This document shows positions 10,010 to 10,562 of a stretch of DNA of 46,523 nucleotides, in pieces. The stretch lies in contig KZ538965.1 in assembly GCA_000934665.2 (NCBI GenBank), positions 1 through 46,523 on the forward strand, read 5' to 3'. Under the pieces are notes generated by a model that made no database searches, was not told the DNA's origin, and worked only from the letters and a program-made list of their open reading frames with translations. Numbering within the stretch: position 1 is the stretch's first letter; each line of letters starts with the position of its first letter. The stretch is from Catajapyx aquilonaris (taxonomy: Eukaryota). The position numbers and the translations under genes are program-made.

Positions 10010-10562
10010 ATGCAGATCTTTGTGCGTAATGCGGAGGGTCACACCCTGACCTTCGACGTGGAGTCCACGGACACCTTGGGATGCCTGAAGTCTCTAATAA
10101 GCGAACAGGAAGGTGTAGAGGCCGAAGAGCAGCGGCTTTTGTATGCTGGACAGCCCCTGGAGGACCACAATACGTTGGGGCACTACAATGTGCAGAACGG
10201 TACGTGAATGACTTGGAATTGTGCGATTAATTAATTACGGTTCACAGCCGGTTGGTGTGCGCTCCATGAACACAGCCGTATTTAATCAACATTTCATACC
10301 CTAAAATTGTTCAATAATAAATAATAATAATAAATTGTGTGATTAATTAATGTTTGATCTTGCAGAGTCTACTCTGGAGCTGGCTTTCCGCCTGAGGGGA
10401 GGTGTGATTGAGCCTTCCCTTCGTCTTTTGGCGCAGAAGTACAATTGCGACAAGCTTATCTGCCGCAAGTGCTACGCCAGGCTCCATCCTAGGGCGCACA
10501 ACTGTCGCAAGAAGAAGTGCGGACACGCCAACGACCTGCGCGCCAAGAAGAAGCTCAAGTAG
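10010..10562 (+). CDS. RpL40: Ubiquitin-like-60S ribosomal protein eL40 fusion (UBA52/RpL40-type) with a highly diverged ubiquitin moiety, 128 aa
   Basis: Exons 10010-10199 and 10366-10562 (phase-1 intron) give a 76-aa Ub fold ending RLRGG, followed by the 52-aa [52 protein letters not shown] (eL40, ~44/52 identical to human by manual comparison). A non-coding first exon is likely (donor ~9734, acceptor 9990-9991). AATAAA at ~10605. Confidence 0.95.

Follow-up and report, generated by a model that had tools for sequence, protein, structure and literature searches.

A ubiquitin-eL40 gene with a strongly diverged, lysine-poor ubiquitin half in Catajapyx aquilonaris

The stretch of Catajapyx aquilonaris DNA analysed here (46,523 nucleotides, called the window) carries a gene for the ribosomal protein eL40 in which the ubiquitin half differs from ubiquitin at about half of its residues, while the eL40 half is conserved. 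We think it probable that the gene encodes a functional eL40 precursor whose ubiquitin has turned into a leader, cleavable and FUBI-like, and has ceased to be a source of working ubiquitin. The spliced coding sequence is made of two exons on the forward strand (10010–10199 and 10366–10562) with a total length of 387 nt, and encodes 128 amino acids followed by a stop codon. The precursor consists of a 76-residue ubiquitin-family domain and then the 52 residues of eL40. The features of the gene are as follows.

9734–9991, forward strand: candidate 5′ UTR intron, or a trans-splice acceptor at 9990–9991
10010–10199, forward strand: coding exon 1 (190 nt), ATG at 10010, ubiquitin-like residues 1–63 and the first base of codon 64
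10200–10365, forward strand: coding intron of 166 nt, phase 1, inside codon 64, GT..AG, 33% G+C
10366–10403, forward strand: 5′ part of exon 2, ubiquitin-like residues 64–76 with the RLRGG end, predicted cleavage site after G76
10404–10559, forward strand: ribosomal protein eL40, 52 amino acids, Pfam PF01020
10560–10562, forward strand: stop codon TAG, as read in the sequence
10606–10611 and 10642–10647, forward strand: two AATAAA motifs, candidate polyadenylation signals

The coding intron starts with the donor G/GTACGT at 10200 and closes with the acceptor TTGCAG ending at 10365. The 5′ UTR intron and the polyadenylation signals are candidates from the sequence only; the former would begin with GTAAGG at 9734, and its 3′ end, TTATTGCAG, ends at 9991, which is 18 nt upstream of the ATG. 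The gene had been predicted to be intact, and indeed the frame is open, the splice sites follow the consensus and candidate polyadenylation signals are present. The ubiquitin-like half joins eL40 directly (GG/VIEP), which is the layout of every ubiquitin-eL40 precursor. Canonical UBA52 of human and Ubi1 and Ubi2 of yeast have this same arrangement of a 76-residue domain, Gly-Gly and a 52-residue eL40.

The coding intron lies after nt 190, a position that the original prediction had given for vertebrate UBA52. We located the same site in 18 of the 256 retrieved proteins, all of which are models in which the intron has been read through. In these models, the insert starts with Gly immediately after ...YNIQK and stops before (E)STLHLVL. 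Chicken, turkey, pheasant, a dragonet fish and the bug Halyomorpha are among the species represented, so that the canonical ubiquitin-eL40 genes of other animals share the intron position. The gene thus retains the structure of the ancestral animal ubiquitin-eL40 gene. A processed pseudogene or retrocopy was considered and ruled out, because the frame is open and is interrupted by a 166-nt intron at the ancestral site. Of the features of a UBA52/Ubi1-type gene, the ubiquitin domain, the direct fusion to a full-length eL40 and the phase-1 intron are all present; a near-identical ubiquitin is not.

The neighbors of the gene in the window are animal-like and encode XK-related proteins, C2-set and V-set immunoglobulin domains, a C2H2 zinc finger and Dor1/COG8. 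Two XK-related genes (PF09815) are arranged head to head at 1138–1920 (reverse strand) and 2792–4133 (forward strand). The Dor1/COG8 gene (25347–27322, reverse strand) is spread over five successive frames with consecutive Pfam profile ranges. Three of its four junctions can be explained by GT..AG introns of 59–125 nt, and an in-frame stop (26235–26237) marks the remaining one; the likely interpretation is a gene with very short introns rather than a broken one. A tandem duplication on the forward strand (20848–22157 and 23208–24384) comprises near-identical sets of frames approximately 2.3 kb apart. These encode acidic, Ser/Thr-rich stretches, and the two frames of the first copy that were scanned gave no Pfam match. 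One tRNA gene (31327–31399, reverse strand, 42.4 bits) is the sole Rfam match in the window. Assembly gaps are located at approximately 28.6 kb, 40.5 kb and 42.2 kb (267 N in total), and at least two of them are flanked by runs of G or C.

Exon 1 alone matches the Pfam ubiquitin family (PF00240, E 6.2e-20). In an ungapped alignment, residues 1–76 are identical to canonical ubiquitin at 38 of 76 positions (P0035, the S22 form) or 39 of 76 positions (P0083, the T22 form), in agreement with the identity of approximately 51% given by the original prediction. Few animal sequences are as conserved as the ubiquitin that is fused to eL40, and it is in this half that the gene departs from the canonical precursor. 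Six lysines are replaced (K6R, K11H, K29L, K33Q, K48Q and K63N), and only K27 remains, leaving one lysine where ubiquitin has seven. The hydrophobic patch is altered (L8A, I44L, H68E, V70A), and so are I36V and L71F; the domain also carries R54N, L13 and F15. Its net charge is −8, compared with 0 in ubiquitin. All of the substitutions listed beforehand, together with the acidic surface, were thus recovered.

What is kept is equally specific. The domain is 76 residues long with no gaps, its core is hydrophobic and residues 72–76 are unchanged, as had been claimed. The N-terminus reads MQIFV, and Q2, F4 and T12 are unchanged. The tail is retained as FRLRGG, with R42, R72, L73, R74, G75 and G76 unchanged and L71F as the only difference. 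The six chain lysines, the L8/I44/V70 patch with H68, and R54 are features that matter for ubiquitin signaling. Measured against a functional ubiquitin, the domain has lost the set of seven lysines and the L8/I44/V70 patch with H68, and has kept the C-terminal tail with R42 and R72.

The loss of lysines should not be overread. If the changes fall at random, the probability of losing at least six of seven lysines at approximately 50% divergence is 0.046–0.054 (hypergeometric). The probability of gaining no new lysine among 38 replacements is 0.24 at the 3.7% lysine share of the neighboring coding sequence. The six-lysine loss is therefore only marginally beyond chance and is weak evidence on its own. 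What makes avoidance of lysine suggestive is mainly its recurrence in FUBI and in a tick leader, both described below.

The second half of the precursor shows a different picture. Exon 2 matches Ribosomal_L40e (PF01020, E 4.5e-29) over profile positions 1–50 of 50. The eL40 half is identical to that of P0035 at 45 of 52 positions and reaches 47 of 52 in the best case (among 110 matches with a 52-residue tail after RGG). This range for other animals bears out the strong conservation, approximately 85%, that had been proposed. The five cysteine residues of eL40 are kept (precursor positions 91, 96, 99, 110 and 115), and the protein has 10 lysines.

One gene is therefore evolving at two tempos, with 49–50% of the ubiquitin half and 10–13% of the eL40 half changed. 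Because both halves share one mutation rate and yet differ this much, eL40 has been under strong selection throughout. The leader itself also shows signs of constraint. At the 14 positions that we take to form the ubiquitin core, all 14 residues are still hydrophobic (9 identical, 5 exchanged among I, L, V and F). We simulated random drift to 37 changes in 76 residues in 3000 runs. The frame stayed open in 471 runs, the hydrophobic core was kept in 80 and RLRGG in 117, and no run kept all three; the simulation is crude, since the present sequence serves as its starting point and neither indels nor real mutation spectra are modeled. The GC content at third codon positions (GC3) is 0.68 for the ubiquitin-like codons and 0.79 for eL40. 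Six other coding stretches of the window lie between 0.38 and 0.56, and the G+C content of the intron is 0.33. The raised GC3 would fit a codon-biased, highly expressed gene.

A ubiquitin half far more diverged than in nearly all animals is also what one would expect of a decaying or silent copy, a pseudogene in the making. We regard this as very improbable. The frame is open and the splice sites are intact, eL40 is 87–90% conserved despite the 50% change in the other half, the core and RLRGG have survived together as they did in none of the 3000 drift runs, and GC3 is well above the G+C content of the intron and flanks. On present sequence evidence, the gene appears to be an intact, selectively maintained ubiquitin-eL40 gene that is presumably expressed.

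In the sequencing runs, one contig matches the 3′ part of the gene.

10414–10596, forward strand: stretch of exon 2 and 3′ UTR in run X5, one identical 183-nt contig, word depth 624.7

Run X5 belongs to a second study (share 0.14), and its kind is not on record. The depth at the locus in four DNA runs of the probable source sample is 18–32. We suspect from the depth of 625 compared with 18–32 that X5 is an RNA run, but contigs cannot measure expression, and we give this one no weight as evidence. No intron-spanning contig was present among the assembled read contigs of the sequencing runs at the locus. In run X4, a second allele was observed at the intron (10214–10298), differing by three bases and a number of small indels and present at approximately one quarter of the depth. 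This allele shows no difference within the exon bases covered, a stretch too short to bear on selection.

The structure model of exon 1 has a beta-beta-alpha arrangement with a mean pLDDT of 86.7. A Foldseek comparison of the model with ubiquitin chains gave TM scores of 0.85–0.95 (50 rows listed). The model is without the last strand, and the input alignment contained canonical ubiquitin, so the fold evidence is not independent of the sequence. When phmmer was run against the sequences of solved structures, the best single-domain E value was approximately 1e-15, and the 60 best were all ubiquitin-type chains.

FUBI-eS30 (FAU) resembles the present gene in that a ubiquitin-like leader with a Gly-Gly end is fused to a ribosomal protein. 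According to PMC8354635, FUBI has a single lysine, equivalent to K27. PMC10611586 describes it as a domain of 74 residues that is two residues shorter than ubiquitin in the L8 loop and has Leu, Phe and His in place of I44, L15 and I13, respectively. Both sources give an identity between FUBI and ubiquitin of 36%. The original prediction had called the window's domain FUBI-like, and this description holds for the sole lysine at K27, for L44 and for F15. It does not hold for the loop, which has no deletion, for position 13, which is Leu rather than His, or for the partner, which is eL40.

The same three states would also be expected if the domain were not a diverged ubiquitin at all, and FUBI itself had been moved from FAU onto eL40 by exon shuffling. 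We find this hardly credible. The 76 residues align to ubiquitin without gaps, whereas FUBI as described has 74 and lacks part of the L8 loop, and it has His where the window's domain has L13 (PMC10611586). Moreover, the intron is at the ubiquitin-eL40 position, the MQIFV start and the RLRGG tail are those of ubiquitin, and the 60 best solved sequences were all of the ubiquitin type, with FUBI being compared by its described features only. The identity to ubiquitin is approximately 50%, compared with the 36% of FUBI. The domain is clearly a recent derivative of ubiquitin itself.

Cases are known in which the ubiquitin half of a ribosomal fusion diverges and the ribosomal half remains conserved. 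PMC10457151 reports that, in Plasmodium species of the Ovale and Vivax lineages, the ubiquitin of UbL40 differs at 14–30% of sites and mostly retains all seven lysines and the hydrophobic patch. It also describes diverged UbS27a ubiquitins in nematodes and many protists. The same paper, citing Catic and Ploegh 2005, Jones and Candido 1993 and Catic et al. 2007, proposes that such diverged copies escaped gene conversion and concerted evolution and may keep only a chaperone role. The gene in the window shares this pattern. Compared with the published Plasmodium proteins, it goes considerably further, with 49–50% of sites different and six lysines lost, and its host is an animal.

We searched for relatives of the gene exon by exon. 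With exon 1, no candidate sharing three common 5-residue words was found among proteins of 34–111 residues, and among 30 candidates of greater length there were 3 matches, all polyubiquitins. With exon 2, 757 matches were obtained among 777 longer candidates; identity reached at most 88% among the 120 listed, with no identical protein. An exhaustive search with exon 2 over 1.84 billion representatives gave 1151 matches, with a top identity of 84% among the 150 listed. None of the listed exon 2 matches had a leader nearer to the window's domain than ubiquitin, and no orthologue of the whole gene was found in these exon-by-exon protein searches. A metagenome scan returned 3 weak loci from 558 pattern matches, the best being an unrelated G+C-rich ubiquitin-like gene without eL40. 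A protein atlas search gave generic ubiquitin clusters only.

To gauge how rare a diverged leader is, we aligned ubiquitin to the stretch just upstream of eL40 in the 250 eL40 proteins listed. The alignment was full-length in 162 proteins and partial in 79, and 9 gave none. Ubiquitin identity was at least 90% in 131 of the 162 fusions with a full-length alignment. The other 31 fell below 90%; we judged 26 of these to be mis-modeled, through intron read-through or a foreign first exon, and 5 to be truly diverged.

P0185, 30% ubiquitin identity: Galendromus occidentalis (mite), XP_003748608.1, annotated 'ubiquitin-60S ribosomal protein L40'
P0119, 34% ubiquitin identity: Hyalomma asiaticum (tick), KAH6929728.1, annotated 'hypothetical protein'
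P0205, 47% ubiquitin identity: unnamed
P0201, 66% ubiquitin identity: unnamed
P0204, 66% ubiquitin identity: unnamed

Like the leader in the window, all five are strongly diverged, end in Gly-Gly and are fused to eL40. A single lysine, at the K27 position, is also seen in the leader of the tick. However, the five are no closer to the window's domain (23–36 identical residues of 71–76) than to ubiquitin, and each has only 4–9 derived residues in common with it. A common origin with P0205 or with the tick leader was rejected, as the 9 and 6 derived residues in common are mostly I/L/V exchanges. The divergence of the mite, tick and other eL40 leaders looks independent of that seen here. Among the six diverged eL40 leaders compared, only that of the window has the full RLRGG.

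A diverged leader on eL40 thus appears to be rare, yet not unique to this gene. The expectation that diverged carriers are not typical of eL40 stands as a statement of rarity (5 of 162); as a statement of absence, it fails on the mite, the tick and the published Plasmodium proteins. Our literature search turned up nothing on diverged leaders of animal eL40, those of the mite and the tick included; ubiquitin-domain architectures are tabulated in the supplement of PMC8122580, outside this search, and such cases may already be among them. The peptide string of the window's domain is absent from the literature searched.

The copy number of eL40 genes in this animal bears on how the divergence was tolerated. 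The gene may be an extra, specialized or dispensable paralogue (for example, a germline-specific one) beside a canonical ubiquitin-eL40 gene, and redundancy would have allowed the leader to diverge. Ribosomal protein paralogues of restricted expression occur in animals, and the tick protein with a diverged leader carries no better annotation than 'hypothetical protein'; both observations lend this reading some support. We treat it as a serious possibility, but not as our expectation. The ancestral intron is kept, GC3 is raised in both halves and eL40 is as conserved as orthologues are between phyla, all of which argue against this reading. No second ubiquitin or eL40 stretch was found by tblastn within the window, although a copy elsewhere would still be compatible with all of these observations. 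The paralogue reading is a matter of copy number and does not conflict with the leader mechanism.

A further question is what becomes of the domain once it is released. It might be a new conjugatable modifier, charged by E1 through its Gly-Gly and attached as a mono-modifier or as a chain cap that lacks K48 and K63. The full RLRGG, unique among the six diverged leaders, is in favor of this, as is the retention of R42, Q2, F4 and T12. Residues L8, V70, H68 and R54 take part in the contacts of ubiquitin with E1, E2 and ubiquitin receptors. L8A, V70A, H68E and R54N therefore alter the very surfaces that a conjugatable protein would use, and the tail is needed for cleavage of the precursor in any case, so that its retention is no argument for conjugation. 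In favor of conjugation, a 2025 preprint reports that FUBI, which is equally poor in lysine, is conjugated by UBA1, UBE2C and APC/C. On balance, we think a conjugatable modifier unlikely. A bolder combination can be imagined, in which this is the sole eL40 gene of the animal and its leader arose independently as a second FUBI. Such a leader would be derived from ubiquitin, lysine-poor, charged by E1 through RLRGG, attached as a non-extendable mark or chain cap, and made in step with ribosome production. We consider this quite improbable.

We return to the cleavable leader as the reading that we favor. On this reading, the gene descends from the ancestral animal ubiquitin-eL40 gene, is maintained by selection and is translated as a 128-residue precursor. 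A protease would cut after Gly76, and the eL40 thus freed would be normal and would join the 60S subunit. Since the domain has the tail of ubiquitin, this step probably falls to the ordinary deubiquitinases that process ubiquitin precursors. The efficiency of this cleavage is not certain, as L8A and V70A touch surfaces that many deubiquitinases use.

The yeast system offers a model for the role of the leader. According to PMC8122580, the ubiquitin of Ubi1 acts in cis for productive eL40 expression and can be partly replaced by SUMO. This source also reports that removal of ubiquitin from Ubi1 is required for a functional 60S subunit and that cleavage of the precursor is essential. By analogy, the N-terminal domain of the window's protein, probably still a beta-grasp, would most likely aid the expression and folding of eL40 in cis before it is cleaved off. 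What this role calls for, a foldable beta-grasp and an intact ubiquitin tail, is just what the domain has kept. It seems to have been released from the constraints on the ubiquitin surface, and probably also from gene conversion with polyubiquitin. Since the six chain lysines and the recognition patch are lost and the surface is acidic, we infer that the domain no longer adds to the working ubiquitin pool. Working ubiquitin would come from other loci, and the outcome would parallel that of FUBI on eS30.

Lineages in which the ubiquitin half has been freed are natural experiments on what a fused ubiquitin must do for its ribosomal protein. The features that survive here (the core, Q2/F4/T12, K27, R42 and RLRGG) would mark the minimum for a leader whose tasks are reduced to folding help and cleavage. 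Together with the losses (six lysines, the L8/I44/V70 patch and the neutral charge), this repeats the pattern of FUBI and of the tick protein. The mite and tick leaders might belong to a clade-wide pattern in chelicerates. If the gene is the sole eL40 gene of the animal, the entire ubiquitin supply would have shifted to other loci, and a free ubiquitin-like protein with an activatable tail would be made in ribosomal amounts. Any conjugates of such a protein would be miscounted as ubiquitylation, because trypsin would leave the same Gly-Gly remnant as it does with ubiquitin.
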